From Myxococcota bacterium (lineage in GTDB: Bacteria; Myxococcota; UBA4151), in assembly GCA_036338695.1 (NCBI GenBank), contig JAYZBQ010000076.1, forward strand, positions 930 through 64,929: a stretch of 64,000 bases of DNA. The letters run 5' to 3'. Below, one piece after another: positions 3,104-46,931 of this stretch. Positions within the stretch are counted from its first letter, which is position 1. Each line of letters begins with the position of its first letter. A program made the position numbers and the translations under genes. The notes beneath the pieces were generated by a model that saw only the letters and a list, made by a program, of their open reading frames with translations, made no database searches and had not been told where the DNA came from.

Positions 3104-3106
3104 CGT

Positions 3107-24945: not shown

Positions 24946-25863
24946 ATGGAGAAAGAGACTATGACCTTTCGTCACCTCGTTGCCTTGAGTGCCCTGATGA
25001 TGATTCACGCGTGCGGCGGCGCGCCGGATCCTGAGGGCGACAGCTGCGCCGTGGACTCTGACTGTACTGCGGGCGCGGTCTGCTTTCAGGGGCTCTGCCG
25101 TGGCTCGGGGACTGAGGTGGATGCGGGGCCGGTCGATGCAGGCGCTGCGGCGCAAGACACGGGCGCAGCCGCTCAAGACACGGGCAACAGCGGGACCCGT
25201 GACGCGGGCGTGACGCCGCCGGCTGACACCGGCGTGACCGCTCCCGATACGGGCGCCGGCGGTTGCCAAGGCGACGACTGCCCGTGCGAAAACGAGAGCG
25301 ACTGTCCTTACGATCATTACTGCAACCGGCGCGACGGTCAGTGCGCACCGCTTCCCGATGGAACCTGCCGAGACGATCGCAGCTGCACGGGCACGTGCAA
25401 CGTACCTGAGGGGCGAACGGTCGGGCGATGTGTTGATTGTCAGGCGGACGCGGATTGCGCCGACCAGGCGCCGCGTACGCGCTGCCTGAACAACACCTGC
25501 CGCCTGCCCGAAGGTCAATGCGAGAACAACACCGACTGCGCTAACGGCGAGCAGTGCGTCGACGGCGCCTGTGAGGGCGGCGGTGGCGGCGGCGGCGCCT
25601 GCCAAGATGATGGCGACTGCGTCGCAGGCGAGACCTGCCTTGCCGGTCGGTGCATCTCGCCGGGCGGTGGTTTGCCGGGTGGCTGCGCATCGCACGCTGA
25701 CTGCGGCGCCGACGAGCAGTGCCTTTTGAATCAGTGCCTGAGTAAGTGCAACACCGGGACCTTCGGGCAGCTGTGCTCGATCCCGCCCCCGCTCGACATC
25801 GCCTGCATCTGCCGCATCGCGGGTGGGCTGACCTGCAACCAGCAGACGGGCTACTGCGAGTAA
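24946..25863 (+). CDS. Secreted Cys-rich lipoprotein with Dickkopf-N-like repeats
   Basis: Signal and lipobox LSALMMIHACGG. Eight or more repeats of C-x2-D-x-DC-x2-G-x2-C-x2-G-x-C (DSDCTAGAVCFQGLC, NTDCANGEQCVDGAC, DGDCVAGETCLAGRC, HADCGADEQCLLNQC), a poly-Gly tract, and an Asp/Thr/Gly-rich low-complexity segment. Start is the ATG at 24946 or 24961. Confidence 0.55.
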   Translation: MEKETMTFRHLVALSALMMIHACGGAPDPEGDSCAVDSDCTAGAVCFQGLCRGSGTEVDAGPVDAGAAAQDTGAAAQDTGNSGTRDAGVTPPADTGVTAPDTGAGGCQGDDCPCENESDCPYDHYCNRRDGQCAPLPDGTCRDDRSCTGTCNVPEGRTVGRCVDCQADADCADQAPRTRCLNNTCRLPEGQCENNTDCANGEQCVDGACEGGGGGGGACQDDGDCVAGETCLAGRCISPGGGLPGGCASHADCGADEQCLLNQCLSKCNTGTFGQLCSIPPPLDIACICRIAGGLTCNQQTGYCE

Positions 25864-25881: not shown

Positions 25882-26247
25882 TTAGGGCTCTGGCAAGGTG
25901 ACGCAGAAGGTCTTCGCTTGCCGCCTCAGACGCATGGGCAAGACGGCGCGGCTGGTGCTGATCTCCAGGTCGATGACCTCTGAGCTTGCCTCGAGCGTCC
26001 GGATGGAATCGATCCCGCCGTAGCGCCCCACCAGCCTCTTGAGGAAGACCTCGGGCGCCTCGCTGGTGGCGCCGAGGCTCAAGCTGGCGAGCTGGTCGCG
26101 TGCGTCCGGACAAAGTTGCTGATAAGCGCGCTCGGCTTTGCCGTCGGCTAGGGCGCGCAGCCACTGCGCAGCAAAGGTCTCTGGGTCGGCGCTTGCGCTG
26201 CAGCCGGCGCACCACACCAGAACCCACAGCGATCGATAACTGCTCAT
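25882..26247 (-). CDS. Small lipoprotein, last gene of the MMPL operon
   Basis: 121 aa with lipobox LVWCAGCSAS. Its start overlaps the MMPL stop by 4 nt. Confidence 0.45.
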   Translation of the reverse strand: MSSYRSLWVLVWCAGCSASADPETFAAQWLRALADGKAERAYQQLCPDARDQLASLSLGATSEAPEVFLKRLVGRYGGIDSIRTLEASSEVIDLEISTSRAVLPMRLRRQAKTFCVTLPEP

Positions 26248-28760
26248 GAGGGACGTCGGCTTCTGCGCCAGCGCTCGTTGAGCGCGAGGACGGCGGGTAG
26301 GGTGAGCAGGTCGGCGAACAGCGCCAGCCCAATGCAGATAGCGGAGAGCCAGCCAAAATCTTTCAGCCCATTAAACTCGCTTGGGATCAGCAACGCAAAG
26401 CCCATGGCGAGCATCATGGTGGTAAAGACGACGGGCCGCCCAGCGTGCAAGATGGTCGCGTGCAAGGCGGGGTCGAAGTCTTGAGTCGCCCGCTCCTGGC
26501 GGAAACGGACGAGGAAGTGGATGGTGTCGTCGACGACCACGCCCATGCACATCGCAAAGATGATGACGGTCGAGATGCGCAGGCTCATGCCCGTCACGGT
26601 CATCACGCCCATCGTCACCACGAGCGGCAGGATGTTGGGGAGCATGGCGACTAGGCCTTGGCGCCATGATCGCAAGACGGCGATAAACATCAGCCCGATC
26701 AGGCCAAACGCGAGCAACAGGCTGCTCATCATGTCGATGACGACCGACTGGACCGCGCGGTTCGCGAGCTTACTGCCCCCTGTCAGGGTACCTGTGATGT
26801 CGCCAGGCCACTGGGCTAAGGTCGCTTCAATCCACTCGATATCGCGCGCAAAAAGCGACGAGCCTGTATCTTTTTTGAGCGCGCTGATGCGCAAGCCGAT
26901 GGCTCGATTAGGCGAGAGCGTCGCTTGCGTCGGGGTCGCTTGAGCGGGGGCGTCCTCTTCGATCCCGAGGTCGTCCTCATCGCCTTCGATCACCATCTCA
27001 TCGTCGCGCGCGTCTCCTTGATGCGCGGCAGCTGCTGCGGGTGCCCGCTCAGCCTCAGGGTCGTCGACGAAGGGTTTCGTCATGGCGTCATCATCGAGGG
27101 TCATAAGGCTTAACAACGCGTCGATCTGGTCCGGCCGCTCTGGCAGCGTCTCTCGGCTTCCGGGCTGCTCGTGAGCCCACAGACCATGAAGGCTCCCGAG
27201 GAGATCGACGACGCTCAGGCTCTTGATCCCAGCCGGGCTGGCGTCGAGGCGCTCTTGCAGCGCGGCGATGCGTCGGAGATTGGACGGCTTGAGGAGCTCG
27301 TTGCGGGGACCCTCGAGCACGATATCAAAGGGCATCGCGCCAGTGAATTGCCGCTCCAAGTCGGTCAGCGCGACCTGCGCCGGGTGGTCTTCTTGGACCT
27401 CCTCGAGCGCACGCGAGAAGGGCTCGAGCTGGCTCGCAAAGACGAGACTGATCACAAAAATGGCGACCGAATACGCCGAGATCAACCCAGGTCGGGCGCG
27501 CACGAACACGCTGACCGCTGGGAGCGCCACGCGATTGAGCCACAAGCGCTCGTTCGAATGGCGCACCTTGGATTGAGGCGGCGCGATCAGCAAGAGCGCC
27601 GGGACCACGCTCAAGGTAAACAACCAGCACAAGGCGATCCCGAGCGCTGCCGACTGACCGTAGGCGCGCACTAGCTCGACGCGTGCGACACTGAGTGAGG
27701 CGAAGCCGATGACCGTGGTCGTGGTGGTTAAGGTGATCGCCGGCAGCATCGCCCGCCAGCCGGTGACCAAGGCTTCAAATGGACTCTGCTGGGCGTCGAG
27801 CCCCTCCTCCACGCGCGCCACTAAGTGGATGGCGTCTCCGATGCCGATGACGAGGATGACGGTCACGGTCGAGAAGTTGATGACGTTGATCGAGCCGCCG
27901 GTGAGCTGCATCAGCCCGAGCCACCACAGGCTCGCAAGCGCCACGCTCAGGAACGGGAGGACGGCGTAGCGAAAGCGGCGAAAAGCGAGCCACAGAAAGA
28001 CCACCATACCCAACCCGACGAGCGGTTGGCGGCTCCAGACCTCATCGCGCATGGTGCGGATGATGTCGTTTTGGATGTAGGGCATCCCGGTGGTTTGAAC
28101 CGTGACGTCCGGATGATCTTGTGTCCAGGCATCGATCTGGTCTCTTAGCGCTTGGAGGTAGCGAGATCGGACGGCATCCGCTCGCAGGTCGCAGTGGACG
28201 CGCGCCAAAATCAGCGTGGCGCGGCCGTCTTCGCTGATCAGTCGCCCTTTGAGCAGGGGGTGACCGAGCAGTTCTCGCTTGGTCTGCTCAGCGGGCCCGA
28301 AACCTTCTTCGCTGTAGAGCGGTTCAATCTGGACACTCTGACCACGCCGCCGGAAGACGTCGGCGGTGTAGAGGCTCTCGACGCGGTCATAGGCTCCGTC
28401 CGGGTTTTCGCCCGGGTCATCACAGCCTTCGGAGCGCTTCAGCAGCAGATCGCCCGGCTCGAAGCTTAGCCCCCGGATGCGTTCGTGGAGTGCACGCAAG
28501 GCGTCAAGGCGCGCCGGCTCAAACCAAGACGCTTCGTCGAGTGACAGCATCACGATGGCGTCGCCGTCGCTCTCGGTGAAGCGTTCTTTGACCCGCTGTA
28601 GGACCTCTTGATCGCGTCCGTCTTGGACAAAGAGTTTATTGACCGTGAAGTCGAACGGGATCTTCAGCGCAGCCGGCGCGATCACCAGCACCGTGAGCGC
28701 GATCACCACGCAGACGGTCACCCATGCCAACAGCTTGGCGCGACGAGATGGTGTACTCAT
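26244..28760 (-). CDS. MMPL/RND-superfamily transporter (two SSD-type 6-TM bundles with periplasmic loops)
   Basis: 838 aa with duplicated topology (TM1 - large loop - TM2-6, twice), the layout typical of MMPL/HpnN-type exporters. Overlaps the OmpA-TSP3 gene end by a few nt. Confidence 0.8.
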   Translation of the reverse strand: MSTPSRRAKLLAWVTVCVVIALTVLVIAPAALKIPFDFTVNKLFVQDGRDQEVLQRVKERFTESDGDAIVMLSLDEASWFEPARLDALRALHERIRGLSFEPGDLLLKRSEGCDDPGENPDGAYDRVESLYTADVFRRRGQSVQIEPLYSEEGFGPAEQTKRELLGHPLLKGRLISEDGRATLILARVHCDLRADAVRSRYLQALRDQIDAWTQDHPDVTVQTTGMPYIQNDIIRTMRDEVWSRQPLVGLGMVVFLWLAFRRFRYAVLPFLSVALASLWWLGLMQLTGGSINVINFSTVTVILVIGIGDAIHLVARVEEGLDAQQSPFEALVTGWRAMLPAITLTTTTTVIGFASLSVARVELVRAYGQSAALGIALCWLFTLSVVPALLLIAPPQSKVRHSNERLWLNRVALPAVSVFVRARPGLISAYSVAIFVISLVFASQLEPFSRALEEVQEDHPAQVALTDLERQFTGAMPFDIVLEGPRNELLKPSNLRRIAALQERLDASPAGIKSLSVVDLLGSLHGLWAHEQPGSRETLPERPDQIDALLSLMTLDDDAMTKPFVDDPEAERAPAAAAAHQGDARDDEMVIEGDEDDLGIEEDAPAQATPTQATLSPNRAIGLRISALKKDTGSSLFARDIEWIEATLAQWPGDITGTLTGGSKLANRAVQSVVIDMMSSLLLAFGLIGLMFIAVLRSWRQGLVAMLPNILPLVVTMGVMTVTGMSLRISTVIIFAMCMGVVVDDTIHFLVRFRQERATQDFDPALHATILHAGRPVVFTTMMLAMGFALLIPSEFNGLKDFGWLSAICIGLALFADLLTLPAVLALNERWRRSRRPS

Positions 28761-28769
28761 CGGGGCGAG

Positions 28770-30581
28770 TTAGCGTTCGATGATTTTGAACTCGACTCGG
28801 CGATTCTTCGCGCGCGCCGAGCGGGTCCGAGCTTTCTCGAGTGGTCGCGTCTCGCCAAAGCCGATCGCGTCGAGCACGTCCGCCGACACGCCTTTGCCCA
28901 CCAAGTAGTCTCGCACGGCGTCGGCACGCTTTTGAGACAAGCGCATGTTGGTGCTGGCGGCGCCGACGTCATCGGTGTGCCCCTCGACGAGGACCTTCTT
29001 GATCTTGTTGGTCACGATCGCGTCTGCGACCTGGTCGAGCATCTCAAAGCTCGCCTTGAGCACCTTCGAGCGGCCGGTCTTAAACCGAACCTTCTGGCTG
29101 ATCTCAATGCGCTCTTTGGTCACTTTGATCAGCGTGTACTTCTTGTCCGGGCAGCCGTCTTCATCGGTCACGCCGTTGATGGTCTCTGGTTGCATCGGGC
29201 ACCGATCATCGACGTCTTTGATCCCGTCCTTGTCGTTGTCTAGGTCCGGGCAGCCGTCTTCATCTTCGAACTGGTCTCGATCCTCTTTATCGTTCGGGCA
29301 CTTGTCGACCTCGTCCTGGTAGCCGTCTTGGTCGTTGTCGAGATCCGGGCAGCCGTCGAGGTCTTCAAACCCGTCGCGATCTTCTGCGACCGTCGGGCAC
29401 TTATCGCTCGCGTCCGGGACCCCGTCGGCGTCATTGTCACGGTCCGGACAGCCGTCGTCGTCCTTGAAGCCGTCCTTGTCCTCGGGATCTGTCGGGCAGC
29501 GATCGTCTTGATCCAAGATCCCATCGTTGTCCGAGTCGGCGTCCTCTTTTTCGGGGCATCCATCGTTGTCTTGGTAGCCGTCAAAGTCTTCGGGCTGGTC
29601 CGGGCATTTGTCCTCATCGTCGAGGAAACCGTCGCCGTCCTTATCGGGTGGCGGGCAGCCCTTGTGTTTGCGCAGACCGCGGATCTCCGGACAGGCGTCG
29701 TCGATGTCCAAGATGCCGTCGTTGTCGGAGTCCTTCTTTGGCACGACGACCTTCTTCGGTCGCTTCGGCTTGGGCGCACACGGGCGCGCCTCTTCACGGG
29801 TTCGCACCGCCAGCGTGCCCGCCTTCTGTGCCGCCGTCTTGGCTTTGAACCAGTGTCCGAGCTTGATCTCGATGCGAGCGAACTCGGCTTGCGCTTCGGC
29901 CTCGGCAAGTGACTTGGGCGCGCAGCGGATGGCGCCGCTGCCGCGCGCCTGCTCGAGGATCTCCTCATAAGCCTTGATCTGCGCAAGGAGTCTCGCCTTT
30001 CCCCCACCGCCGGTGGATTCCGTGGTGGCGATGAGGCGGTTGGCGCGTCGGTCTTCGACCTCTTTGCATAAAACCGGGCGGTCCCAGTAGGTAGCGCTCT
30101 GCGCTAAGCCCGCGAGCTTCCGCAGCTCGGTGCCCACCATCTGCAGACGCTCGCCTGAGCGCTCAACCGCTTCGAGCGCAAGCTGCAGACGTGCCGCACG
30201 CGCACCGCTCGAGCCCGCTTTGGGTGCGAGCCCACGCAGCTGGTCTTGCATCGGCTTGAGGCGGCTCTGCATCGCCTTGACGCCGGACATACCTTTGCTC
30301 AGCTTCTGCAGCGACCCCCGCAGCCCCGGAGGTAGCTCATCGAGCTTTGCGGCGTCGATGTTGAAGCGTTTGTCCTTGATGGTGATGACGCCGCGCAGCG
30401 CGCTCGCCTGGTCGGCGAGGTCATGCAGCGCGCAGGTCGCCTCCTCCATGTCCTCGAGTGGCTCAAGCGCTTTGAAAGCCGCTGCGAAGGGCTCATCGAC
30501 CGCCGGGTCGCCGACGGGTCGATAGGGCGAGACCGTCGTGCACCCTGCGACCACGAGCAGGCAAAGTGACCACCTCACCAT
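28770..30581 (-). CDS. OmpA-family lipoprotein with tandem thrombospondin type-3 (calcium-binding) repeats
   Basis: Lipoprotein signal MVRWSLCLLVVAGC. At least ten DxDxDGxxDxxDxCP repeats. C-terminal OmpA domain (...EGHTDDVGAASTNMRLSQKRADAVRDYL...NRRVEFKII). Confidence 0.85.
   Translation of the reverse strand: MVRWSLCLLVVAGCTTVSPYRPVGDPAVDEPFAAAFKALEPLEDMEEATCALHDLADQASALRGVITIKDKRFNIDAAKLDELPPGLRGSLQKLSKGMSGVKAMQSRLKPMQDQLRGLAPKAGSSGARAARLQLALEAVERSGERLQMVGTELRKLAGLAQSATYWDRPVLCKEVEDRRANRLIATTESTGGGGKARLLAQIKAYEEILEQARGSGAIRCAPKSLAEAEAQAEFARIEIKLGHWFKAKTAAQKAGTLAVRTREEARPCAPKPKRPKKVVVPKKDSDNDGILDIDDACPEIRGLRKHKGCPPPDKDGDGFLDDEDKCPDQPEDFDGYQDNDGCPEKEDADSDNDGILDQDDRCPTDPEDKDGFKDDDGCPDRDNDADGVPDASDKCPTVAEDRDGFEDLDGCPDLDNDQDGYQDEVDKCPNDKEDRDQFEDEDGCPDLDNDKDGIKDVDDRCPMQPETINGVTDEDGCPDKKYTLIKVTKERIEISQKVRFKTGRSKVLKASFEMLDQVADAIVTNKIKKVLVEGHTDDVGAASTNMRLSQKRADAVRDYLVGKGVSADVLDAIGFGETRPLEKARTRSARAKNRRVEFKIIER
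29140..29730. repeat. Tandem imperfect DNA repeats encoding the TSP3 motifs of the OmpA-family gene
   Basis: Recurring (c)cgggcagccgtc(g/t)tcatc... units roughly every 50-100 nt. They are coding repeats, not a CRISPR array. Confidence 0.55.
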
Positions 30582-30907
30582 TCGTAGTTTTCCTTACGCT
30601 TCTTGGGCGCCGCGGGGCGGCTGTGCATACGCCGACGTGTGATGTCGAGCGCCTTGTTGGCGCGAACCAACGCCAAACCGGCGAACTCGCTGGCGAACTG
30701 ATACTCGCTGTGTCCGTCGAGCTCACGCGCCTTGTCCAGGAACAGCTCGGCGCTGTGGTACCAGTACGGCGCAAAGCGTTGCGCGTTGAGCAGTCGCGCC
30801 TCCTCGAGCGCTGCGTCCGCCGAGACGATGTTACTGGTCGCCACGATCGGTCCGCACGCCGCCGCCGAGCCGAAGAGTGAGAAAATGATCAACCAGCGCA
30901 TGAGCAT
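30575..30907 (-). CDS. DUF4398-like small lipoprotein encoded immediately upstream of the OmpA-family gene
   Basis: 110 aa with signal and lipobox LFGSAAAC. Helical, coiled-coil-like (AALEEARLLNAQRFAPYWYHSAELFLDKAREL). The DUF4398-OmpA pairing is a known conserved neighbourhood. Overlaps the OmpA start by 7 nt. Confidence 0.55.
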   Translation of the reverse strand: MLMRWLIIFSLFGSAAACGPIVATSNIVSADAALEEARLLNAQRFAPYWYHSAELFLDKARELDGHSEYQFASEFAGLALVRANKALDITRRRMHSRPAAPKKRKENYEW

Positions 30908-30925
30908 CCTTTGGTTCGCCCCCCT

Positions 30926-32068
30926 TTAGGGGGATTCGACGGGGGTGAGCAAGCCTTCAGAGATAATCCCGAGGTAGGCGTCGTGTAGGACGACGCGTCG
31001 GGGTCCATCGAAGGTCACGGACGGGACGCCCCAACTGTCCGCATAATCCGGCGGCCTCCCTGCGCTCGCTCGTGCGAAGGTCCCCAGCGAGAAGCCGGTG
31101 TCGTTCTCGTCCAAGATGTACACGCTCGTCTGCGGCAGCGCGTCGGCGCCTTCACCCAGCCGCAGCGGGTCGAAGACGAGCACATGGCGCGCTGGGTTAT
31201 CGCGGACATTCTCGATGACGGCGACGGTCCCGTTGAGGATGTAGGAGCCGGCAAAGCGCTGGTCCATCTCGGCACGATAGACGATGCATCGCCCGCAGCC
31301 GCCGCAGCTGGTCGTCGAGCGCCCTCGGAAACACACCATGCGCTCACCGTCTCGGCCGCACCGTGTCTCACCGGTTCCGCATTGATCCAAGCCGCTCGAG
31401 CAGGGCCCACCCGGAGCGCAAAAACGCCCCGAGAACGGGTTGTTCTCATCTTGGATGCAGGGCGCTCGGCAGAACCCGCCGGGCGCGCACCGATGCCCCT
31501 CATAGCAGTCGCCATCGTTTGCGCAGGGCTGGTTGGTGTTGGTGCAGTCGGAGTCGTCGAGGCATTGTTTGGCGTTCGCCGTGATGCGCGTGGCGCAGCC
31601 ACCGCAGACGTTGCGCGGGTGGTCGTCCGGGCAGATCGTTGCGGTGGCGTCCGCGTTGCAGATGACGGTGCCGCAGCCGTGGGCTCCGCAGGTATCACCG
31701 GGCTGCCCGGCGCTGTCGTCGAGCTCCTCGCAGCCGCCGCAGATGTTCGCCTCATCAAAGAAGCACTCAAGGGTCCCCTCAGTCGAGCAGAGGTATTGAC
31801 CGCAGCCGGTCTCACCGCAGGCGTCGCCATAACGGCAGCCCTCTTCCGGACAATCCGGACCGAACTTGACCGTATCTCGCCCGCAGGGGGGCTCTTCGGG
31901 GCCTGAGTCAAAGGCGGGACCGGTGTCAACGACGCCCGCCTCGGGGAGCCCTGCGTCGACCGACGCATCCGGCTGACCCGCATCCACGACCACGCCAGCG
32001 TCCGGCGGTGCAGGGTCCGGGATGCACGCAGCGGTGCACAGCGCAATCCAGCAAACAAATCGATTCAA
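30926..32068 (-). CDS. Secreted Cys-rich lipoprotein (duplicated ICGGC / NVCGGC motifs)
   Basis: Lipobox ALCTAAC. More than 40 Cys with repeated CGGC and DxDC patterns. The C-terminal ~110 aa are Cys-free and look beta-rich. Overlaps the upstream gene stop by 4 nt. Confidence 0.5.
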   Translation of the reverse strand: MNRFVCWIALCTAACIPDPAPPDAGVVVDAGQPDASVDAGLPEAGVVDTGPAFDSGPEEPPCGRDTVKFGPDCPEEGCRYGDACGETGCGQYLCSTEGTLECFFDEANICGGCEELDDSAGQPGDTCGAHGCGTVICNADATATICPDDHPRNVCGGCATRITANAKQCLDDSDCTNTNQPCANDGDCYEGHRCAPGGFCRAPCIQDENNPFSGRFCAPGGPCSSGLDQCGTGETRCGRDGERMVCFRGRSTTSCGGCGRCIVYRAEMDQRFAGSYILNGTVAVIENVRDNPARHVLVFDPLRLGEGADALPQTSVYILDENDTGFSLGTFARASAGRPPDYADSWGVPSVTFDGPRRVVLHDAYLGIISEGLLTPVESP

Positions 32069-32838
32069 GGGCGGTCTCCGTCTTCGCCTGATGAAGACTG
32101 TACATCGGCTGGGCTACTCTTTCCAGCGCCGGGCGACGCGGCGCGGATCCAGCGCAGGGCGCGCAAGCGCACGCCTTTCTCCCGCTCCGAAGTTGGCTGG
32201 AGCAATTCAAGCTCGCGAAGGCTCTTTCTGTCAGCGACGTGCCCGATCGCCAGCCACAGGTTGATGCGGCGGATCTCTGGCGTGTTCGGCTGCTTGAGCT
32301 GTTCCATCCAGTCCGCAATTTGCTCGCCGTTGCCGGCGCGGATGCTTTTTTCGAGCTCGCTGACTGCGGCTGGGCGCTGGTCGGGCGCTTCGAGAGCCGC
32401 TTGGATGGCGTGCTCGACGAGGCTCGGCGCGGCGCGCAATAGGGCGTCCGCATCGGCCGGCCTGGCCAGCGTCAGCACAGCGATGCCCTCCATCCCGCGA
32501 AGGGTGGTCTGCTGATCGCTGCCCACGAGCTCAATGACGGTCCGGCAACCGCAGGACGGTCGTGGCTTGCTGCGGCATCCAAGAATGAGACTCTGCAGCC
32601 TCAGCGAGAGAGGCGAACTTGCGCTCTGCGGTCTCATGACTTCGTTCAGAGTGACCCCGAGTTGGACGTTCAGTTCGGCGGATTCGAGACCGGGCTCGAT
32701 CGCAATTTGACCATCAAACGCTTGCCAGATGAGCTTGGGTGGCAGCGAGGTGGCGCCGCGTTGAAAGAGCAGCCGAGCGGATTGCTGAGGGGTCGTGCAA
32801 GCCGCTCCGGCGCCGGTTAGACTCAAAACGGTTAGCAT
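32065..32838 (-). CDS. Hypothetical lipoprotein, helical-repeat (HEAT/ARM-like); first gene of the envelope operon
   Basis: MLTVLSLTGAGAAC from the ATG at 32838 (the longer ORF to 32916 would overlap the divergent gene). Helical repeats. Confidence 0.4.
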   Translation of the reverse strand: MLTVLSLTGAGAACTTPQQSARLLFQRGATSLPPKLIWQAFDGQIAIEPGLESAELNVQLGVTLNEVMRPQSASSPLSLRLQSLILGCRSKPRPSCGCRTVIELVGSDQQTTLRGMEGIAVLTLARPADADALLRAAPSLVEHAIQAALEAPDQRPAAVSELEKSIRAGNGEQIADWMEQLKQPNTPEIRRINLWLAIGHVADRKSLRELELLQPTSEREKGVRLRALRWIRAASPGAGKSSPADVQSSSGEDGDRP

Positions 32839-32899
32839 CCCAACCGCCGCGCGCCGAAGGACGGGATGGAGGCGTCGCTTGGCGCAGCGAAAAAGGGTT

Positions 32900-33832
32900 A
32901 TGATCCGTCTGCTCATCGTGGTCGCAGTGGTGCTTTCAGTGGGGTCGGCGGGGTATGCCGGCAGCTATCCGGTGCTACGTGACCGCAGCCAGTACGGCTC
33001 GATGCCCGAAGAGCAGCTCGACGCGAGCGTCCAAGGGATTGCCCGGTTTCGAAACCTGCGTCGACGGGTTTTGCGGCACAGCGCGCAGATGCTGGGCGCG
33101 AACTATCGGCCAGACCCGCTTGGCGAGGGCGCAGGCGGAGCCGTCGACACGGACGCTCGGTTTCGGCTCGCTCCGGTCGACTGCGTCACCTTTGTCGAGG
33201 CGTCGCTGGCGATGGCGCTGGCAGGTTCGCTGGAACAAGCCAAGGTCTGGATGGATCGCTTGCGCTATTCCGGCGATGCGGTCCGCTTTGATCAGCGCAA
33301 TCACTTTATGTTGGCGAGCTGGCTACCGCACCTCCAAGAGCTGAACGTCCTAAAGGATATCACCCGCTCGATCGCTGAGCCGACGACGCTCGTTCACGAC
33401 TACGACGCGATGCGCTGGGAGCAGGTGCCCCCTCGGTACCTGCCGCAGCGCTTTGACCAGATGGAGCGTCCGAGCGGTCAGGTCGAGCTGCCTTTGCTCG
33501 ACCTCGACACGCTCGAGGCCAACCTCGACGCGATCCCCACCGGGACCATTTTGTTGCTGGCGCGCGTTCATCGCCCACGGATTCCGGTTCGGATCTCGCA
33601 TTTGGGGTTCATCGTTCACCAAAAGAACGGCCCGACGATATTTCGTCACGCAAGCCAGGAGGGCTGGGGGCGCGTGGTCGACGAGGACCTAATTCGCTAT
33701 CTAAGACGCCTCGATGCGCGCAGCAAATGGGCTCTTCAAGGGGTTAATTTGCAGCTCCCACGCCACCCAAAAAGGTTGCCGAAGCGCCTGATCGAGCCCG
33801 GGACCTTGCCTGATGATGTTGTGCTGCCGTAA
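32900..33832 (+). CDS. Hypothetical secreted protein
   Basis: ATG at 32900 preceded by AAAAAGGG. Signal peptide MIRLLIVVAVVLSVGSAGYA. Contains Cys and His (DCVTFVEASL...HFMLASW) that could form a hydrolase core, but no family is assignable. Confidence 0.45.
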   Translation: MIRLLIVVAVVLSVGSAGYAGSYPVLRDRSQYGSMPEEQLDASVQGIARFRNLRRRVLRHSAQMLGANYRPDPLGEGAGGAVDTDARFRLAPVDCVTFVEASLAMALAGSLEQAKVWMDRLRYSGDAVRFDQRNHFMLASWLPHLQELNVLKDITRSIAEPTTLVHDYDAMRWEQVPPRYLPQRFDQMERPSGQVELPLLDLDTLEANLDAIPTGTILLLARVHRPRIPVRISHLGFIVHQKNGPTIFRHASQEGWGRVVDEDLIRYLRRLDARSKWALQGVNLQLPRHPKRLPKRLIEPGTLPDDVVLP

Positions 33833-33909
33833 GCCTCGACCTTTCGGTTATCGGATTGCGACGAACCGGCGCTCGTGGCAGCGTACCGTTACGTTCAAGG
33901 GAGAATGAG

Positions 33910-35013
33910 ATGCCCCGCCGTTTATGCCTCTATCTCTCCGCGCTGGCTATGGTCACCGCGGGTTGCTCCGACGACGACCAGTTTGGTCGCATCACCTTCG
34001 ACGGCGGCCCCCCGCCCGACGCCGGGCCGGCGCCGAATGACCTACCTATCAACGTGGGCGACCCGTTCACATATCAGGGGATCTCGCGCACACCGAACGG
34101 CTGTGTAGGTGGCTTTATCGACGCGCAATGTGAAGAGCAGGGTAGCTGGTATCTGAACATGACGGTGACCGATAAGGTGCCGGACAAGGCGACGAACGTG
34201 ACCGCAGGGAGCTCGTGCGCTGCGGGTCAGGCCTTGGTCCAGCCCCTGCAGGATCAGTGCGCCTCGTGCCCAGGCGATGACGTCCCGACGCTCCTCAATG
34301 GCGCCTTAGACGCCGACGGGAACCCCGGCCCGCCTCAGGTTTACTGCATCCCCGCCCGCGGCTGGGACAACGTGTACAATCTGCGCGCCATGGCGGAGTA
34401 TCAGATGTCGGTTGAGCACCCTGCGCCCCCCAACCTGGGCAACTCATGGCTCTATAATCTGGCGCCGTGGGACGAGTCGCAGACCGCACCGTTCTCGGGT
34501 GAGAAGAGCTTCCGCACCAACGTTGCGATGCTGCCGCGCGCCTCGAAGACACCGTTCCCGTGGGCGCTCGACCTGAGCAAATGGGACGTGGTGTCCCAAG
34601 AGTTTGTCGACCGCATCCTTGAGCTCGATCCGGAGGCGGATATTCAGCGTCCTGAGGGCGGCGCCTACATGAAGGCGCTCCTGAACTATGACCTCAACGG
34701 CGTCGCCACCCGCCACTCGATCGAGGTTCTGTATCACGAGCGAGGGTATCTCTGTAAGTTCAACGAAGAGCTCGGCGCGCCGGCGCCCGGGTCTGATCGC
34801 CGGATCCGCAATGGTGAAACCGGTGGTATGAACATGCTCATCCAGCTCAAGAAAGATCCCGACACGGCGCTCGGCGTCGACACCATCGATGGTAACGCAT
34901 CGTGTGTATCCGACAGCGACTGCCCGGATCGCTTTAGCTGTCGGGGCGAGCCAAAGCGCTGTCGGCGCTTGCTGCCTAGGTGCTGCATCCCCGGTGTGGG
35001 AGGCTGTCGCTAG
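33910..35013 (+). CDS. Hypothetical Cys-containing lipoprotein
   Basis: ATG at 33910 with AAGGGAGAATGAG upstream. Lipobox LAMVTAGCSDDD. Cys-rich C-terminus (CVSDSDCPDRFSC...RCC). Confidence 0.45.
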   Translation: MPRRLCLYLSALAMVTAGCSDDDQFGRITFDGGPPPDAGPAPNDLPINVGDPFTYQGISRTPNGCVGGFIDAQCEEQGSWYLNMTVTDKVPDKATNVTAGSSCAAGQALVQPLQDQCASCPGDDVPTLLNGALDADGNPGPPQVYCIPARGWDNVYNLRAMAEYQMSVEHPAPPNLGNSWLYNLAPWDESQTAPFSGEKSFRTNVAMLPRASKTPFPWALDLSKWDVVSQEFVDRILELDPEADIQRPEGGAYMKALLNYDLNGVATRHSIEVLYHERGYLCKFNEELGAPAPGSDRRIRNGETGGMNMLIQLKKDPDTALGVDTIDGNASCVSDSDCPDRFSCRGEPKRCRRLLPRCCIPGVGGCR

Positions 35014-39501: not shown

Positions 39502-40245
39502 GTGACGGTGATCGCAGCTATTCCTGCTCGTTTTGGTTCGACGCGCTTGCCGGGCAAGCTGCTGCTCGACCTCGGCGGCCGGCCGATCATCGCCCACGTG
39601 GTAGCGGCTGCACAGCGCAGCGAGCTCATCGATGAGGTGCTGGTCGCAACCGATCATGACGCCATCGCACAGGCAGCGCAGGCGGCGGGCGCTGACGTGG
39701 TGATGACCGACCCTGCGTTGCCCTCCGGCTCGGACCGCATCGGCGCAGCGCTGGCTGGTAGAACGTATGAGCTGGCGCTGAACATCCAAGGTGATGAGCC
39801 CGAGATCGACCCGGCGGCGCTCGACGCCTTGGTTCGTGCGATGCGCCAGAGCCCGAGCGCCGAGCTCGGTACCTTATCCGCTCCGCTCGCGCCGGGCGAG
39901 TTAAGCGATCCGAACGCCGTCAAGGTTGTGTGCGACCTGCAGGGCTTCGCGATGTACTTTAGCCGCGCCGCGCTCGGCGCTGACCGCGATGAGGTCCTCG
40001 GTGGTGCGGATGAGCCGTCTTCGGCGGCTCGTCGACATCTCGGGGTCTACGCGTATCGTCGCTCGGCGCTTGAGCAGTTTTTAGCGCTGACTCCGAGCCG
40101 TCTTGAGCGGCTCGAGCGGCTTGAGCAGCTGCGAGCGCTTGAGAATGGCTTGAAGATGATCGTTGTCCCGGTGGATAAGGCGCCGGCAGGGATCGACACG
40201 ACCCAAGATTTAGCGGCGGCGCGCCGTCGCTTCGGTGACGACTAA
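39502..40245 (+). CDS. kdsB: 3-deoxy-manno-octulosonate cytidylyltransferase KdsB
   Basis: MTVIAAIPARFGSTRLPGKLLLDLGGRPII. Confidence 0.9.
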   Translation: MTVIAAIPARFGSTRLPGKLLLDLGGRPIIAHVVAAAQRSELIDEVLVATDHDAIAQAAQAAGADVVMTDPALPSGSDRIGAALAGRTYELALNIQGDEPEIDPAALDALVRAMRQSPSAELGTLSAPLAPGELSDPNAVKVVCDLQGFAMYFSRAALGADRDEVLGGADEPSSAARRHLGVYAYRRSALEQFLALTPSRLERLERLEQLRALENGLKMIVVPVDKAPAGIDTTQDLAAARRRFGDD

Positions 40246-40254
40246 GGGAATTTT

Positions 40255-41868
40255 ATGAAGCGCTCTCCAAAATACATCTTCTTCACCGGTGGCGTCGTCT
40301 CGTCGCTGGGTAAGGGCTTGGCTGCGGCCTCGACGGGGGCGCTCCTCGAAGCGCGCGGGTTGACGGTCACCAACATGAAGATGGACCCGTACCTCAACGT
40401 CGACCCGGGGACCATGAGCCCGTATCAGCACGGCGAGGTTTTTGTCACCGACGACGGCGCCGAGACCGACCTTGACCTCGGTCACTATGAGCGCTTCACG
40501 CACAGTCGGCTGAGCCAGGCGAACAACGTGACCAGCGGGCGAGTCTATTGGTCGGTGCTCGAGCGCGAGCGGCGCGGTGACTACCTGGGTAAGACCATCC
40601 AAGTCATCCCGCACATCACCGATGAAATTAAGCGCCGAATTCGCGACACGGCGCAGAGCAGCGGGGCCGACATCTGCATCGTCGAGATCGGCGGAACGGT
40701 CGGGGACATCGAGAGCCTGCCTTTCCTCGAGGCGATCCGTCAGATTCGCAATGAGGAGGGGCATCAAAACACGGCGCTCGTCCACCTCACCTTGGTCCCA
40801 TACATCGCCGCAGCCGGTGAGATGAAAACCAAGCCAACCCAGCACTCGGTCAAAGAGCTGTTGGGCATCGGGTTGGGCTGCGATTTTCTGTTGTGCCGCT
40901 CCGAGGAGCCCCTCGCTGAAGAGCTGAAGCAAAAGATCTCTGCCTTCTGTAATGTGGCGCCGCGCGCGGTGATCTCAGCCTATGATGTGCGCTGCATCTA
41001 CGAGCTGCCGCTGGTGCTCAATGAGCAAGGGCTGGACGCCCAGATCTGTGATGCGCTCAATATTTGGACGGGCGCGCCGCGTTTGGACGGCTGGCACTCG
41101 GTGGTGCGGCGCTACCTCGAGCCGAAGAACGGCGAGGTCACGATCGGTGTTGTCGGGAAATACGTTGGGCTCGTCGAGAGCTACAAGAGCTTGAACGAAG
41201 CCTTGGCGCACGCCGGGATGCACCACGACGTGCGGCTGAATATTGAGTATTTGGACTCGGAGGCCATCGAGACAGACGATGAGCCCTTGCGCAAGGTAGA
41301 CGGTGTGCTGGTCCCGGGCGGCTTTGGCGAGCGCGGCTCGGAAGGGAAGATCGCAGCGATTCGCTTTGCTCGTGAGCAGAAGGTCCCATACTTTGGGATC
41401 TGCCTAGGGATGCAGCTCGCGGTGGTCGAGCATGCCCGGCACTGCGCTGCGCTCGATGGCGCCAACTCGATCGAGCTTGCGCCCGAGACCGAGCACCCGG
41501 TCATCAGCTTGATGGAGGCGCAGAAGCAGGAGGCTGACCTCGGCGGGACGATGCGTCTGGGCGCCTATGACTGCTCGCTGAGCGCAGGGAGTCGGAGCGC
41601 CGCTGCCTACGGTCAAGAGCAGATCTCGGAGCGGCACCGGCATCGGTTTGAATTCAACGACGCCTTCCGATCTCAGCTTGAGGATACGGGGCTCGTGATC
41701 GCCGGCGTTCACGACCAAAGCGGCTTAGTCGAGGTGGTCGAGCGCGCCGATCATCCTTGGTTCGTTGGCTGTCAGTTTCACCCTGAATTTAAGTCGCGAC
41801 CCGGTGAGCCTCACCCGCTGTTTCGGGACTTTATCGCCGCATCGATCGACGCCCGGGGCGCATCATGA
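40255..41868 (+). CDS. pyrG: CTP synthase PyrG
   Basis: [21 protein letters not shown]; glutamine amidotransferase domain GICLGMQ. Confidence 0.95.
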
Positions 41869-42674
41869 GCGCCGCCGTTCAGGTGGGTTCGTACCTTGTC
41901 GGCTCCGGTCAGCCGCTTCTGCTGATCGCAGGGAACTGCGTCGTCGAGTCGCTTGAGACCGCGTTGCGGACGGCCGAGGTGGTCCAGCGCGAAGCGACAA
42001 GACGCACGCTCAACCCTGTCTTCAAGGCGAGCTTCGATAAGGCGAACCGGACACGGCGCGACTCGCACCGAGGCCCTGGAATGGACGCTGGCTTAGAGGT
42101 GCTCGCCCAGGTCAAGAAGCAAACCGGCTTGCCGATTTTGACCGACGTCCACCTGCCATCGCATTGCGAAGCGGCAGCGCAAGTCGCCGACGTTCTACAG
42201 ATCCCCGCCTTTTTATGTCGGCAGACGGACCTCCTTGAGGCGGCCGCTGCGACGGGACGGGTGGTCAACATCAAGAAGGGGCAGTTTGTCGGCCCTGAGG
42301 CGATGCAGCATGCCGTCGCCAAAATCCATGAGGCGGGTCAGCCGCATGCGCTTTTGACCGAGCGTGGCAGCTCGTTTGGTTACGGCGACCTCATCGTCGA
42401 CTACCGCGGCTTCTCGACGCTGCGCTCGTTCGCTCCCCTCATCTTTGACGCCACGCACTCCGCTCAGAAACCGGCGGGCAGCGGCGGCGTGACCGGAGGG
42501 GACCGGCGCCTCGCCTTGCCCCTTGCGCGTGCCGCCGTCGCGGTCGGGGTTGATGGGCTCTTTATGGAAATCCACCCGGACCCCGAGCGCGCCCTATCGG
42601 ACGCGGCGAATAGCCTGGATTTTGACCTGTTTACCCGTTTGCTTGATGATGTGGTCCGGTTACGAGAGGCGTAA
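41865..42674 (+). CDS. kdsA: 2-dehydro-3-deoxyphosphooctonate aldolase KdsA
   Basis: Full-length KDO8P synthase (DAHP synthase I fold); ...[11 protein letters not shown].... Confidence 0.9.
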
Positions 42675-43172
42675 ATGAGCGAGCTGGCTTGGGGTGAAGT
42701 CGAGATGTTGGTGCTCGATGTTGACGGGGTGCTGACCGACGGGGGCCTATGGGTCGCCGCCGATGGCGCCGTCACCAAGCGCTTCTTTGTGCGCGACGGC
42801 TCTGGCATTGTTCGTCTTCAGCGCGCCGGCGTCCCCGTCGTCTGGTTGACTGGGCGCGCCGACCCGGCGGTCACTGCGCGCGCCGAGGAGCTCGGCATCG
42901 CTCGCCTCATCGCCGGCAGCCACGATAAAGCCAGCGCACTCCACAGCTTGAGCTTATCAATGGGTGTGCCGACGAGCGCTATGGCCTATGTCGGCGATGA
43001 CCTACTCGATCTGCCGGCGATCCGTTTAGCGGGGCTTACGGTGGCGCCGAGTGACGCGGCGGAGCCGGTCAAGCGTGAGGTCGATCACGTGGCGCACCTA
43101 GCCGGCGGGCAAGGTGTGGTGCGCTGGGTGTGCGATCAGCGGATCGCCGCCAAACAGGGGCAGGGCGCGTGA
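42675..43172 (+). CDS. kdsC: KDO 8-phosphate phosphatase KdsC (HAD)
   Basis: VLDVDGVLTDGGLWV...YVGDDLLDLP. Confidence 0.8.
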   Translation: MSELAWGEVEMLVLDVDGVLTDGGLWVAADGAVTKRFFVRDGSGIVRLQRAGVPVVWLTGRADPAVTARAEELGIARLIAGSHDKASALHSLSLSMGVPTSAMAYVGDDLLDLPAIRLAGLTVAPSDAAEPVKREVDHVAHLAGGQGVVRWVCDQRIAAKQGQGA

Positions 43173-43597
43173 TCGCTGCGCTGATCCTCCTGGTCGCAGC
43201 GCCCGCTCAACCGGACAAAGAGGTCCGATTCCAGGCAGATAATTGCAGCTACGGCCGGGCGATGTCCGAGGCGGTCTGCGTCGGGCGTGTGCGCGTCCAG
43301 CGCGCCGATGCGCGGCTCCGGTGCCGAAAATTAACCGTGCAGTTTGACGCGCAAGGCAGGGTGCGCCGGCTCGATTGCGAAGGTGCCGTCAAATTCCGTC
43401 GCGGTGACGTGGAGGAGGCGTCAGCTTCGACCGCTCGCTACACGCGTGACGACGCTCGAGTGGTGCTGGAAGGGGAGGCCTCGCTTCGGCGCGGGCGCGC
43501 TCGTCTGGCGGGTCAGCGTGTGATCTTTTTGCTCGATGACGATCAAGTCCGCGTCGAAGGTCAGGCGCGCGGGCGCTTCAACAACGAGGCGCGTTAG
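43130..43597 (+). CDS. LptA/LptC-family (OstA-like) LPS transport protein
   Basis: Signal/anchor MRSADRRQTGAGRVIAALILLVAAPAQP followed by an OstA-like beta-jellyroll. Sits between kdsC and lptB, the position LptC/LptA usually occupy. Only one such gene is present. Confidence 0.55.
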   Translation: MRSADRRQTGAGRVIAALILLVAAPAQPDKEVRFQADNCSYGRAMSEAVCVGRVRVQRADARLRCRKLTVQFDAQGRVRRLDCEGAVKFRRGDVEEASASTARYTRDDARVVLEGEASLRRGRARLAGQRVIFLLDDDQVRVEGQARGRFNNEAR

Positions 43598-44319
43598 TGC
43601 CCTCGTTACTCGAAGCCAAATCGCTGGTCCGATCGTTTGGCGAGCGCCGCGTCGTGGATGAGGTCAGCTTAGCGCTCGAGCAGGGTCAAGTGCTTGGTCT
43701 GCTCGGACCTAATGGCGCTGGAAAAACAACAACCTTTCGAATGATCGCTGGGCTGCTCAAGCCGGACCGTGGCTCAGTTTTGATCGACGGCGAAGACGTC
43801 ACTAAGATGCCCTTGTACCGACGCGCAAGCCGAGGACTTGGCTACCTTGCGCAGCGCGGCGGCCTCTTCCCCGGCTTGGACGTGCGCGCTAATTTGTTGG
43901 TGGCGGGAGAGATCGCTGGCCTCTCAACATCCGAGGCGGGACACCGAGCCGAGGAGGTGATGGAGCGGCTCAAGCTGTCGCATGTCGCTGGCGGGCGTGA
44001 GACGACCCTCAGCGGCGGTGAGCGCCGGCGCGCCGAGATCGCACGAGCGCTCATGGTGCGGCCTCGGATGCTGCTCTTTGATGAGCCTTTTGCGGGGGTG
44101 GACCCGATGGCTGTGACCTCGTTGCAGGCCGAGATGCGCGCCTTGGCAGACAGCGGCCTGTCGATCCTCATCACGGATCACGCCGTGGCGGCGACGTTTT
44201 CCATCTGTGATCAGGTCGCCGTGTTAAACGAAGGGCGCGTCCTCGTGGCGGGCGCTCCCGCTGTTGTTGAGGCGGACCCGCGTGTGCGAGCGACCTATCT
44301 GGGGCCGCAAAACGCCTAA
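43597..44319 (+). CDS. lptB: LPS export ABC transporter ATPase LptB
   Basis: Walker A GPNGAGKTTTF, ABC signature LSGGERRR, Walker B LLFDEP. Confidence 0.85.
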   Translation: MPSLLEAKSLVRSFGERRVVDEVSLALEQGQVLGLLGPNGAGKTTTFRMIAGLLKPDRGSVLIDGEDVTKMPLYRRASRGLGYLAQRGGLFPGLDVRANLLVAGEIAGLSTSEAGHRAEEVMERLKLSHVAGGRETTLSGGERRRAEIARALMVRPRMLLFDEPFAGVDPMAVTSLQAEMRALADSGLSILITDHAVAATFSICDQVAVLNEGRVLVAGAPAVVEADPRVRATYLGPQNA

Positions 44320-44393
44320 CGGATCGGCTCCAAAATGAGCGGGGCCCTTGCGCCTTTGTCGCCCGCACACCACACTCCCCTGAGGAGTAGTGG

Positions 44394-45875
44394 TTGTTTC
44401 CTTCGCTTCAGCATAATTTAAAGATCACCACGCAGCTGCGCATGACACCGCAGCTTCAGCAGGCGGTGAAGCTGTTGCAGTACAACCGCGCTGAGCTGGT
44501 CGAGTTCATCAACACCGAGATGCTTGAGAACCCAACGCTCGAGGAGCGACCGGTCGAAGAGCCTGCGAGTGACCCTGCCGAGGGGCAAACCTTCTCGCCG
44601 AGCGACGACAACAAACCCATTCACTCGGCCACGGCGCAGAGCGCTGAGCAGGCGAGCGACGCAGAGGCGGTCCACAGCACGCAGATCGATTGGAACCGGG
44701 TCGACCTGAACGATACCACGCACCGCTTTCAGGCGGTTCGACCCGTCGATGATTTGCCGGGGTATGACCAGACGCTGTCGCGCAGCGAGACGCTGACCGA
44801 GCATCTGAGCTGGCAGCTGCGTATGTTGCGTCTCGACGAGGGGGTCCTTGAGGCGGCCTTTGAGCTCGTCCACAGCCTCGATGAGAAGGGGTGGTTCTCG
44901 GAAGGAATTGACGGCTGGCAGCAGCACATCGCTCAGTCTGAACGGAGCCCTGAGCTGCTTGAGCGGGCGCGCGCTCAGCTGCTGCAGCTCGACCCGGTTG
45001 GTGTCGGCGCGCTCGACCTCAAAGAGTGCCTGCTCGTGCAGCTCCGGTCCTTAAATCTGGAACATAGCCACGCCTACCGCCTGGTCGATGAGCACCTTGA
45101 GCTGCTCGGTAGCCTCGACCTGCGCCAGGTCGCTCGGACCGTGGGCATCTCGGTCGACGAGCTCGAAGAGGCGAAGGCGACCATCAGCACGCTCGAGCCT
45201 CGCCCTGGGCGAGCCTTTATGAGCGATGACCTCGAGCGAAACCCCTTCGTGACGCCGGATGTTCACTTCTTCAAAGAGGGCGACGAGTGGGTGGTCCGTC
45301 TCAACGAGGACGGGATGCCTCGCCTGCGCGTCTCGAAGTACTATCAGCGCGCCTATGAACGCGGCGGGCTCACCCCGAAGGAGCGCGAGTACGTCATCGA
45401 CCGGTTGCGCCGTGCGGAGTGGGTGACCAAGTGCATCCTGCAGCGGCAATCGACGATTCGCAAAGTCTGTGAGAGCATTCTGAGGTTCCAAGGCGAGTTC
45501 TTCGAGCGCGGACCGAAGTACCTCAAACCGCTGGTCTTGCGCGACGTCGCAGATGACATCGAGGCACACGAATCGACGGTCTCACGGGTGACCTCGAACA
45601 AATATGCCGAGACCCCTCAGGGGCTTTTGCCGCTCAAGTATTTCTTCTCCGCAAGGCTCGCGAGCAGCTCGGGCGGAGGCGACGTCAGCGCAGAGGCTGT
45701 TCGACAGCGGATCGCCGGCATGATCAAGAGCGAAGACGTGTCCAAACCATTTAGTGACTCGCAGATCGTCAAGTTACTCAAGGCGGAGGGGATTGAGATC
45801 GCCCGCCGAACCGTTGCAAAATATCGAGAGCAGTTATTGATTCCCGCGGCAGGAAAGCGCCGGATTAGACGCTAA
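44394..45875 (+). CDS. rpoN: RNA polymerase sigma-54 factor RpoN
   Basis: N-terminal LKITTQLRMTPQLQQAVKLLQ and C-terminal RpoN box ARRTVAKYRE. TTG start with GAGGAG 6 nt upstream. Confidence 0.9.
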   Translation: MFPSLQHNLKITTQLRMTPQLQQAVKLLQYNRAELVEFINTEMLENPTLEERPVEEPASDPAEGQTFSPSDDNKPIHSATAQSAEQASDAEAVHSTQIDWNRVDLNDTTHRFQAVRPVDDLPGYDQTLSRSETLTEHLSWQLRMLRLDEGVLEAAFELVHSLDEKGWFSEGIDGWQQHIAQSERSPELLERARAQLLQLDPVGVGALDLKECLLVQLRSLNLEHSHAYRLVDEHLELLGSLDLRQVARTVGISVDELEEAKATISTLEPRPGRAFMSDDLERNPFVTPDVHFFKEGDEWVVRLNEDGMPRLRVSKYYQRAYERGGLTPKEREYVIDRLRRAEWVTKCILQRQSTIRKVCESILRFQGEFFERGPKYLKPLVLRDVADDIEAHESTVSRVTSNKYAETPQGLLPLKYFFSARLASSSGGGDVSAEAVRQRIAGMIKSEDVSKPFSDSQIVKLLKAEGIEIARRTVAKYREQLLIPAAGKRRIRR

Positions 45876-45894
45876 CAACAAGGAGGAGCCCTGA

Positions 45895-46449: not shown

Positions 46450-46490
46450 ACCATTTCCTGTCGTGAGGGCGTAGGAGCGACGATCACACC

Positions 46491-46931
46491 ATGCTTTCGT
46501 TCCTTCGTGAGCGCGCCATTGACCTCGCATTTGTGTGCGAGAGTCACGTCGGCTTGTTGCGGCGGATCAGTTCGCTGTGCGCCGAGGTCGATGGCGGCGT
46601 CGAGGTGGCGCAAGCGACGTCTGCCCTGATGGAGCGAGAGCGCCTCGGCAGCGTGGTGGTAGCGCCTGGGATCGCGCTGCCGCACGCTCGGGTCGGTGGG
46701 ATTAACGAGCCGGTCGTGGCGGTGGTACGCACCGTGCACCCTGTTGCGTTTGACGAGGGCGCCGTCACCTTATCGGTCGGCATCTTGACGCCGGAGCAGG
46801 CGACCTCGACGCACCTTGAACTGCTCCGGTTTTGGGCGTCGTTGCTGCGAGACGATGCGGCGCGTGGCGCGCTGCTCCGCCTTGAAGACCCTTCGCAGGT
46901 GATGTCGGTCGTGGGAGCTCACCGGTGCTGA
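46491..46931 (+). CDS. ptsN: PTS EIIA(Ntr) PtsN
   Basis: Fructose/mannitol-type EIIA fold with the phosphorylatable His in GIALPHARV. Confidence 0.8.
   Translation: MLSFLRERAIDLAFVCESHVGLLRRISSLCAEVDGGVEVAQATSALMERERLGSVVVAPGIALPHARVGGINEPVVAVVRTVHPVAFDEGAVTLSVGILTPEQATSTHLELLRFWASLLRDDAARGALLRLEDPSQVMSVVGAHRC

Follow-up and report, generated by a model that had tools for sequence, protein, structure and literature searches.

Organization of the locus

The locus examined here is a run of six genes, named g1 to g6 in the order of transcription, at positions 25882 to 32916 on the minus strand of a 64,000-nucleotide (nt) stretch of DNA from a Myxococcota bacterium; the whole of this analyzed 64-kb stretch is referred to as the window. 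A preliminary description, made from the sequence alone, had read the six genes as one translationally coupled envelope operon built around an MMPL transporter and an OmpA-family lipoprotein with calcium repeats. The list of open reading frames (ORFs) gives six frames in a row, g1 to g6, and together with the junctions that we read between them it bears out the six minus-strand genes, as well as their packing in the manner of an operon and the common envelope character of their products (Table 1). Each start was also said to overlap the preceding stop; this holds at three of the five junctions (g1/g2, g3/g4 and g5/g6), whereas g2 and g3, and likewise g4 and g5, are separated by gaps, and translational coupling had therefore been overstated.

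The overlaps at g3/g4 and g5/g6 are retained in every relative, the most distant one included, and the spacers vary in length among these relatives, from 18 to 59 nt between g2 and g3 and from 9 to 50 nt between g4 and g5. The junctions of the relatives thus form three coupled pairs linked by short spacers. Spacers of 9 to 18 nt are too short to accommodate a promoter or a terminator, and the tight packing indicates that the six genes are probably co-transcribed. Scans for sigma-70 promoters and terminators gave no information, with no terminator-like excess seen, and no sigma-54 site was found upstream of g1, matches in the window being below chance expectation.

The start of g1 is more likely ATG 32916 than the downstream codon at 32838, since the shorter form would place only 13 residues, with neither Lys nor Arg among them, ahead of the lipobox Cys, at which point the orthologues keep a charged, Arg-rich stretch. 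Read from ATG 32916, g1 overlaps by 17 nt at its 5' end (32900 to 32916) with the start of a divergent AmiA-like gene on the plus strand (ATG 32900), so that an intergenic promoter region is absent there. The same abutting or overlapping starts of these two genes are seen in relatives, with a 20-nt overlap in L001 and a 1-nt gap in L088.

Table 1. Genes, junctions and domains of the six-gene locus and of the genes beside it (positions in the window)
Feature	Position	Strand	Size or sequence	Description	Basis
g1	32065-32916	-	283 aa from ATG 32916 (257 aa from 32838)	orphan lipoprotein	
g2	30926-32068	-	380 aa, TTG start	Cys-rich lipoprotein	
g3	30575-30907	-	110 aa	DUF4398 lipoprotein	
g4	28770-30581	-	603 aa	OmpA-family lipoprotein	
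g5	26244-28760	-	838 aa	MMPL/HAE3-type RND inner-membrane transporter	
g6	25882-26247	-	121 aa	small lipoprotein, predicted NTF2-like fold	
Junction g1/g2			4 nt, TTGA	overlap	
Junction g2 to g3			18 nt	gap	
Junction g3/g4			7 nt, ATGGTGA	overlap	
Junction g4 to g5			9 nt	gap	
Junction g5/g6			4 nt, ATGA	overlap	
g4, clade-specific N-domain	about 30015-30539	-			exhaustive search
g4, DUF4398-like domain	about 29742-30014	-			indirect, through hits of residues 190-280
g4, TSP3 repeats	29148-29732	-	11 repeats	predicted calcium repeats	motif count, Pfam TSP_3
g4, OmpA domain	28800-29084	-		predicted peptidoglycan-binding domain	Pfam
DUF7107-like gene	24946-25863	+	37 Cys	Cys-rich lipoprotein, convergent	Pfam, below cut-offs
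AmiA-like gene	32900-33832	+		N-acetylmuramoyl-L-alanine amidase-like secreted protein; divergent from g1, syntenic in relatives	Pfam, 80 bits
Further lipoprotein gene	33856-35013	+	385 aa, 16 Cys	lipobox VTAGC, Cys-knot-like C-terminus	

Lipoprotein signals and the g3/g4 anchor pair

A signal peptide or lipobox had been ascribed to every product. A lipobox is present in g1 to g4 and in g6, its Cys being conserved across the orthologues of all five, and lipid attachment (acylation) of these proteins is accordingly a prediction; g5 carries an N-terminal membrane helix in its place. At position +2 the five lipoproteins carry T, I, G, T and S, with Lys in none, and a Lys at this position is the mark of inner-membrane lipoproteins in Myxococcus xanthus (PMC3222651). 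Since none has it, the five lipoproteins would be expected at the outer membrane.

The family labels proposed for the central genes were confirmed by Pfam. DUF4398 (PF14346) matches g3 with 30.4 bits, which passes the cut-off of 27.9, and g4 matches OmpA (PF00691) with 76 bits and TSP_3 with 34 bits; MMPL (PF03176) matches g5 with 109 bits against a cut-off of 20.5, in two stretches, one in each half of the protein. For g4, the OmpA assignment required both the model match and the signature TD...N..LS..RA, and the TSP3 assignment required D.D.DG..D..D.C motifs, each with a Cys. The peptidoglycan-binding signature is present as GHTDD...N..LSQKRA (GHTDDVGAASTNMRLSQKRADAV, beginning at residue 534), and the claim of more than ten calcium repeats agrees with the 11 TSP3 motifs counted, 6 long (D.D.DG..D..D.CP) and 5 short, each with a Cys. 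The TSP3 region holds 12 Cys at regular spacing, and the repeat is visible in the DNA as a 99-nt period. Binding of peptidoglycan and of calcium by g4 is predicted from these motifs.

The remainder of g4 was resolved when 1.84 billion representatives were searched exhaustively: residues 1 to 190 found only about 6 representative clusters, and residues 190 to 280 gave weak matches to small DUF4398 proteins and to DUF4398-TSP3-OmpA fusions. From these matches the architecture of g4 reads as a clade-specific domain and a DUF4398-like one, ahead of 11 TSP3 repeats and the OmpA domain. The pairing of DUF4398 with OmpA had been called a known neighborhood, and it does recur, as adjacent genes in another myxobacterium and as fused proteins elsewhere. 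Hits of g4 to the NCBIfam equivalog models PA1041 and LptF are far below the cut-offs, and its closest solved structure in the PDB is 5wtl (E 1.5e-38).

The g5 pump and its proposed small partner

Besides MMPL, g5 has Pfam matches to Patched SSD and ACR_tran, and its nearest relatives outside its own clade are annotated as HAE3 pumps within the superfamily of resistance-nodulation-division (RND) transporters. Hydropathy places a first helix at residues 10 to 28, clusters of helices at about 266 to 443 and 678 to 825, and loops at about 30 to 250 and 445 to 675. Residues D309 and H312 and the group D744-D745-T746-H748 are invariant in 8 clade members, and general knowledge of RND pumps places such acidic and His residues on the proton-relay helices. 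An acidic low-complexity insert (DDPEAERAPAAAAAHQGDARDDEMVIEGDEDDLGIEEDAPAQATPTQ) lies in the second periplasmic domain, at residues ~566 to 612 (positions ~26925 to 27065), and is variable among clade members that are well conserved elsewhere. A role for g5 in a tripartite drug-efflux pump was considered and rejected, since neither Pfam nor the contigs of the relatives place a membrane-fusion or TolC-type gene next to it.

The predicted structure of g6 is an NTF2-like fold, an alpha+beta cone in which three or four helices pack against a curved antiparallel sheet, and no family match for it was found in Pfam or NCBIfam. The place that its gene takes can be compared with 79 distant HAE3 loci from GTDB (L009 to L087; pump identity at most 34%). 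A LolA_like gene (PF17131) lies on the pump strand at 38 of these and directly downstream of the pump at 19, often with a 4-nt overlap, and a LolA_like partner looks like a general rule for this RND group, to judge from these gene neighborhoods. At other distant HAE3 loci a DUF1302-like gene stands between the pump and the LolA_like gene. No LolA_like ORF was detected in the window at E<=10, and none occurs in the loci of the clade. It is g6 that fills the slot usually taken by the gene for a LolA-like carrier at distant HAE3 loci.

The orphan lipoproteins g1 and g2

The lipobox residue Cys40 of g1 and its Cys114 and Cys122 are invariant in six orthologues, and no relatives of the protein were found in Pfam, in NCBIfam or by profile search of the PDB. 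The earlier label "HEAT-like" lacks support: with the threshold relaxed to E<=10, Pfam matched g1 to no HEAT or ARM repeat model, and the PDB profile search was empty.

The very high Cys count of g2 was correctly noted, with 33 Cys in 380 aa, 22 of which are invariant. Its lipobox is followed by a DAG-rich linker, by ~200 aa rich in Cys and, in the predicted structure, by a C-terminal beta-sandwich; confidence in the model was low over the first 90 residues and in parts of the Cys-rich stretch, and only the match of the C-terminal domain was used. On this model we propose that g2 may be a lipid-anchored, disulfide-rich stalk with a beta-sandwich head. It matched no Pfam or NCBIfam family, nor PA14 or MYXO-CTERM. 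Assignment as a Cu/Zn superoxide dismutase was rejected, the beta-sandwich being alike in fold only and no His being invariant in the family. Characterized members of the HAE3/MMPL pumps transport lipids and other small hydrophobic molecules, and g2 has a lipoprotein export signal of its own, so that the idea of a Cys-rich cargo for the pump is implausible.

Homologues of g2 at 35 to 37% identity are solitary and stand without the other operon genes. On two unrelated contigs, distant homologues (36 to 37%; L090, 2085 to 5975, and L091, 7306 to 11023) are divergent beside a double-M16 peptidase of ~890 aa, and HEAT_2 proteins are encoded near the g2 homologue on both; judging from these two neighborhoods, the M16-peptidase setting may be the ancestral context of the Cys-rich family.

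Distribution, synteny and evolutionary rates

The six-gene order recurs in a single, rare lineage of marine Myxococcota, where at least 12 metagenome contigs or metagenome-assembled genomes (MAGs), independent of one another, carry it. Every relative found keeps it. The exact g5 protein is present in Tara Oceans assemblies, and only one related genome is in GTDB, a Myxococcota MAG. Relatives of g5 make up a small clade at 44 to 97% identity, beyond which identity drops to at most 30%, and as far out as 40% pump identity both the order and the short junctions persist. Three irregularities that look like annotation or assembly artefacts were met among the relatives: (i) g2 of L001 (6690 to 7829) is intact by tblastn (80%), although annotated as a 114-aa fragment and an antisense ORF; (ii) the pump of L003 (10001 to 12490) is broken into two pieces of 642 and 161 aa; and (iii) a 114-kb contig (P0090) carries a g6 variant with the N- and C-termini of the window's copy and a frameshifted middle.

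Conservation extends well beyond the six genes, as the flanks (ArgC, HAD, NAD synthase and cobalamin adenosyltransferase) are equally syntenic in all relatives, and so is the whole 15-gene neighborhood, housekeeping genes included. At the 79 distant pump loci, on the other hand, DUF4398 and Cys-rich neighbors are absent, and a single one has an OmpA-domain hit, ~8.5 kb downstream and on the opposite strand. With the flanks syntenic and the distant homologues lacking these neighbors, a dedicated export module of all six genes, as originally suggested, is not established.

The six proteins evolve at markedly different rates. Identity to close relatives is 80 to 88% for g2, g3 and g4 (77 to 87% where g3 is taken singly), 60 to 73% for g5, 46 to 61% for g6 and 47 to 53% for g1, which falls to 28% in L088; ArgC and NAD synthase, at 65 to 75%, lie below g2, g3 and g4. 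These rate classes suggest sub-modules, with g2 to g4 slow and alike in rate, and g1, g5 and g6 fast. More conserved than housekeeping enzymes, g2, g3 and g4 are probably core envelope proteins of this uncultured marine myxobacterial group.

Neighboring genes and the wider window

The second Cys-rich gene, at the downstream end of the locus, had been described as diverging from the operon; it is in fact convergent with g6, the two stops lying 18 nt apart, and is probably outside the g1 to g6 transcript. Its product scores just under the cut-offs for DUF7107 (24.4 against 24.6) and Dickkopf_N (19.6 against 25), and the gene is syntenic in all relatives at 39 to 75% identity, with two tandem DUF7107-like copies (362 and 431 aa) in L088 (16274 to 18684). 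At the opposite end, the lipoprotein encoded beyond the AmiA-like gene matched no family in Pfam or NCBIfam and has 73 to 87% identity in relatives, above that of ArgC. Together with g1 to g6, these three genes form an island of nine, all of them coding for exported or envelope proteins.

Farther out, the window encodes three SurA-like peptidyl-prolyl isomerases (1314 to 4222), an SLT-LysM protein (6030 to 7208) and a cytochrome c554-like protein (7205 to 8857) on one side and, on the other, a core lipopolysaccharide (LPS) and regulation cluster at 39502 to 48735 (KdsB, PyrG, KdsA, an LptB-like ABC ATPase, RpoN, HPr kinase and RapZ), followed by PtsI (49503 to 51236) and flagellar FliM, FliO, FliP and FliR (58957 to 63141). 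L088 carries FlgG, FlgA, FlgH, FlgI and FlgJ (1 to 4137) ~5 kb from its operon copy, and by these gene contents the lineage is apparently a group of marine myxobacteria with flagella.

Interpretation

The reading that we favor, with a probability of roughly 0.55, is that g1 to g6 form a lineage-specific, probably co-transcribed envelope operon in which the three coupled pairs are related but separable modules. What the analysis itself establishes is the gene structure, the domains, the conservation of lipoboxes, junctions and pump motifs, and the predicted fold of g6. The modules can be envisaged as follows: (i) g3/g4 would act as a calcium-dependent tether from the outer membrane to peptidoglycan, in which the OmpA domain of g4 would grip peptidoglycan, the 11 disulfide-containing TSP3 repeats would bind calcium and serve as a spacer, and DUF4398-type helical domains would be contributed by both proteins; (ii) g5/g6 would be a proton-driven exporter of a lipid or other hydrophobe, with g6 as an acceptor or accessory subunit in the role that LolA-like proteins hold for most related pumps; and (iii) g1/g2, the two orphan lipoproteins, would be a third pair. 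Co-transcription, the location at the outer membrane, a lipid substrate for g5 and any contact between the modules are inferred.

Several observations weigh against this reading: (i) the top NCBIfam match of g5, TIGR00921 (HAE3), reaches 188 bits against a cut-off of 351.9; (ii) no lipid-biosynthesis genes occur in the 64-kb window; (iii) the model of g6 was built on a 7-sequence alignment, with a predicted local distance difference test (pLDDT) score of 76.6, and proteins of the NTF2 fold serve many different functions; (iv) a function could be assigned to neither g1 nor g2; and (v) as the flanks are syntenic too, the conserved order is indistinguishable from inheritance by descent, and no relative with broken flanking synteny came to light in a GTDB scan, in a metagenome scan and an exhaustive search that both used the N-domain of g4, or in 11 contig look-ups.

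This last point leads to an alternative that we consider unlikely but deserving of weight, namely, that the genes cluster by descent as functionally independent envelope genes, packed and perhaps co-transcribed, with no physical or pathway link. The equal synteny of the 15-gene neighborhood fits it, as do the occurrence of the pump and the Cys-rich protein without the others outside the lineage and the assignment of the three pairs to different rate classes; it accords less well with the fact that all six products, plus the neighboring AmiA-like protein and two further Cys-rich lipoproteins, are envelope proteins, and gaps of 9 to 18 nt force co-expression in this genome.

An improbable alternative at the other extreme is one integrated trans-envelope machine, a non-homologous counterpart of AmeABCD, in which g5/g6 deliver lipid to the outer membrane at sites built by g3/g4 and g2. 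The literature already describes HAE3 pumps that have partners of their own in the periplasm and at the outer membrane (AmeABCD, PMC6394551), as well as BstABC (PMC10942540), and YbjP, an NTF2-like lipoprotein that partners TolC in Escherichia coli (PMC13082787, PMC13095208), provides a precedent for such a protein binding an efflux component. LolA_like or DUF1302 genes adjoin many distant homologues of g5, and the persistence of order and short junctions down to 40% pump identity would also suit a machine. On the other hand, none of the AmeABCD-type partner families is present, DUF1302, DUF1329/LolA_like and BNR-type domains all being unmatched by Pfam in the operon proteins; g4, a lipoprotein whose domains are of helical type, has no channel; the co-occurrence is confined to one lineage; and g2, g3 and g4 evolve far more slowly than g5 and g6. 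If true, this explanation would describe a previously undescribed trans-envelope lipid delivery with its own cell-wall anchor, in which g5 would pass its substrate to g6 instead of a LolA-like carrier, at sites that the calcium-stiffened, peptidoglycan-anchored g3/g4 pair and the disulfide-rich g2 would organize.

A TraAB-like surface module, with g2 as stalk and recognition head and g4 as its wall partner in adhesion or outer-membrane exchange, is very improbable. As described in PMC12045341, TraA combines a stalk rich in Cys with a beta-rich head, and in TraB a beta-barrel precedes the TSP3 repeats and the OmpA domain. The top NCBIfam hit of g4 is indeed TraB (NF033763), and g2 is a lipid-anchored protein that combines a Cys-rich region with a beta-sandwich domain. 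The TraB score is, however, 176 bits against a cut-off of 700, with the best stretch confined to model positions 318 to 498 of 522, the TSP3-OmpA part, and the N-terminus of g4 consists of the lipobox, the clade domain and the DUF4398-like domain, with no TraB beta-barrel match found. Membership in TraAB was rejected on the sub-cut-off score and the missing beta-barrel match; moreover, g2 lacks the PA14, MYXO-CTERM and NCBIfam matches, and its head is conserved at 80 to 88% rather than polymorphic.

Least credible of all is that g5 is an ordinary HpnN hopanoid exporter, an alternative already raised in the preliminary description, for although HpnN is its closest solved structure (5khn, E 9e-13) and TIGR03480 its second-best NCBIfam hit, the match to the solved HpnN structures covers a single transmembrane bundle, the scores are far under the cut-offs (148 against 751.85 for TIGR03480; 81.7 against 1100 for NF052374), and no squalene-hopene cyclase or hpn gene was found by Pfam in 39 ORFs of the window (9 around the operon and 30 larger ones elsewhere) or in the flanks of the relatives.

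Traffic to the outer membrane of lipids other than LPS and lipoproteins is poorly understood, and HAE3 pumps are among the few known routes. The elements are of known kinds, and their combination represents a variant specific to the lineage, chiefly for the NTF2-like partner that occupies the slot of the LolA-like one. The exchange of partners suggests that such a pump needs a periplasmic partner with a hydrophobic pocket but no particular fold; this replacement and the strong constraint on g2 to g4 leave current concepts unchanged.

Comparison with known systems

As in other DUF4398 and OmpA anchor pairs, g3 is translationally coupled to an OmpA-domain lipoprotein; g4 differs in having, in addition, a clade-restricted N-domain of ~175 aa, an internal DUF4398-like domain and the 11 TSP3 repeats. 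The structure 5wtl is an OmpA of Capnocytophaga gingivalis with TSP3 repeats (Dai et al. 2017, as cited in PMC12045341). It shares with g4 the TSP3 repeats with intra-repeat Cys, followed by an OmpA-like domain, but the solved chain comprises 261 aa, whereas g4 carries a lipoprotein signal and has N-terminal domains of helical type. With TraA and TraB of Myxococcus the locus shares the order of a Cys-rich protein gene upstream of a TSP3-OmpA protein gene, the difference being that a DUF4398 gene here sits between the two.

Among HAE3 pumps, HpnN transports hopanoids, BstA sterols and AmeD, with its partners AmeABC, monoterpenes. These pumps and g5 belong to a common superfamily and have the same layout of helices and loops, with an acidic residue in each transmembrane bundle, and no HlyD or TolC partner adjoins the pump; g5 is set apart by its identity of at most 30% outside its clade, by scores under all curated cut-offs and by the variable acidic insert. 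The likeness of g6 to YbjP is at the level of the fold only, with no sequence similarity, and YbjP binds an outer-membrane channel, whereas no such channel gene is present at the g6 locus. Elsewhere, HAE3 pumps have a LolA_like, DUF1329 or DUF1302 partner, whereas that of g5 is a 121-aa NTF2-like lipoprotein; the g5 locus is like 19 of the 79 distant HAE3 loci in that a small partner gene follows immediately downstream of the pump.

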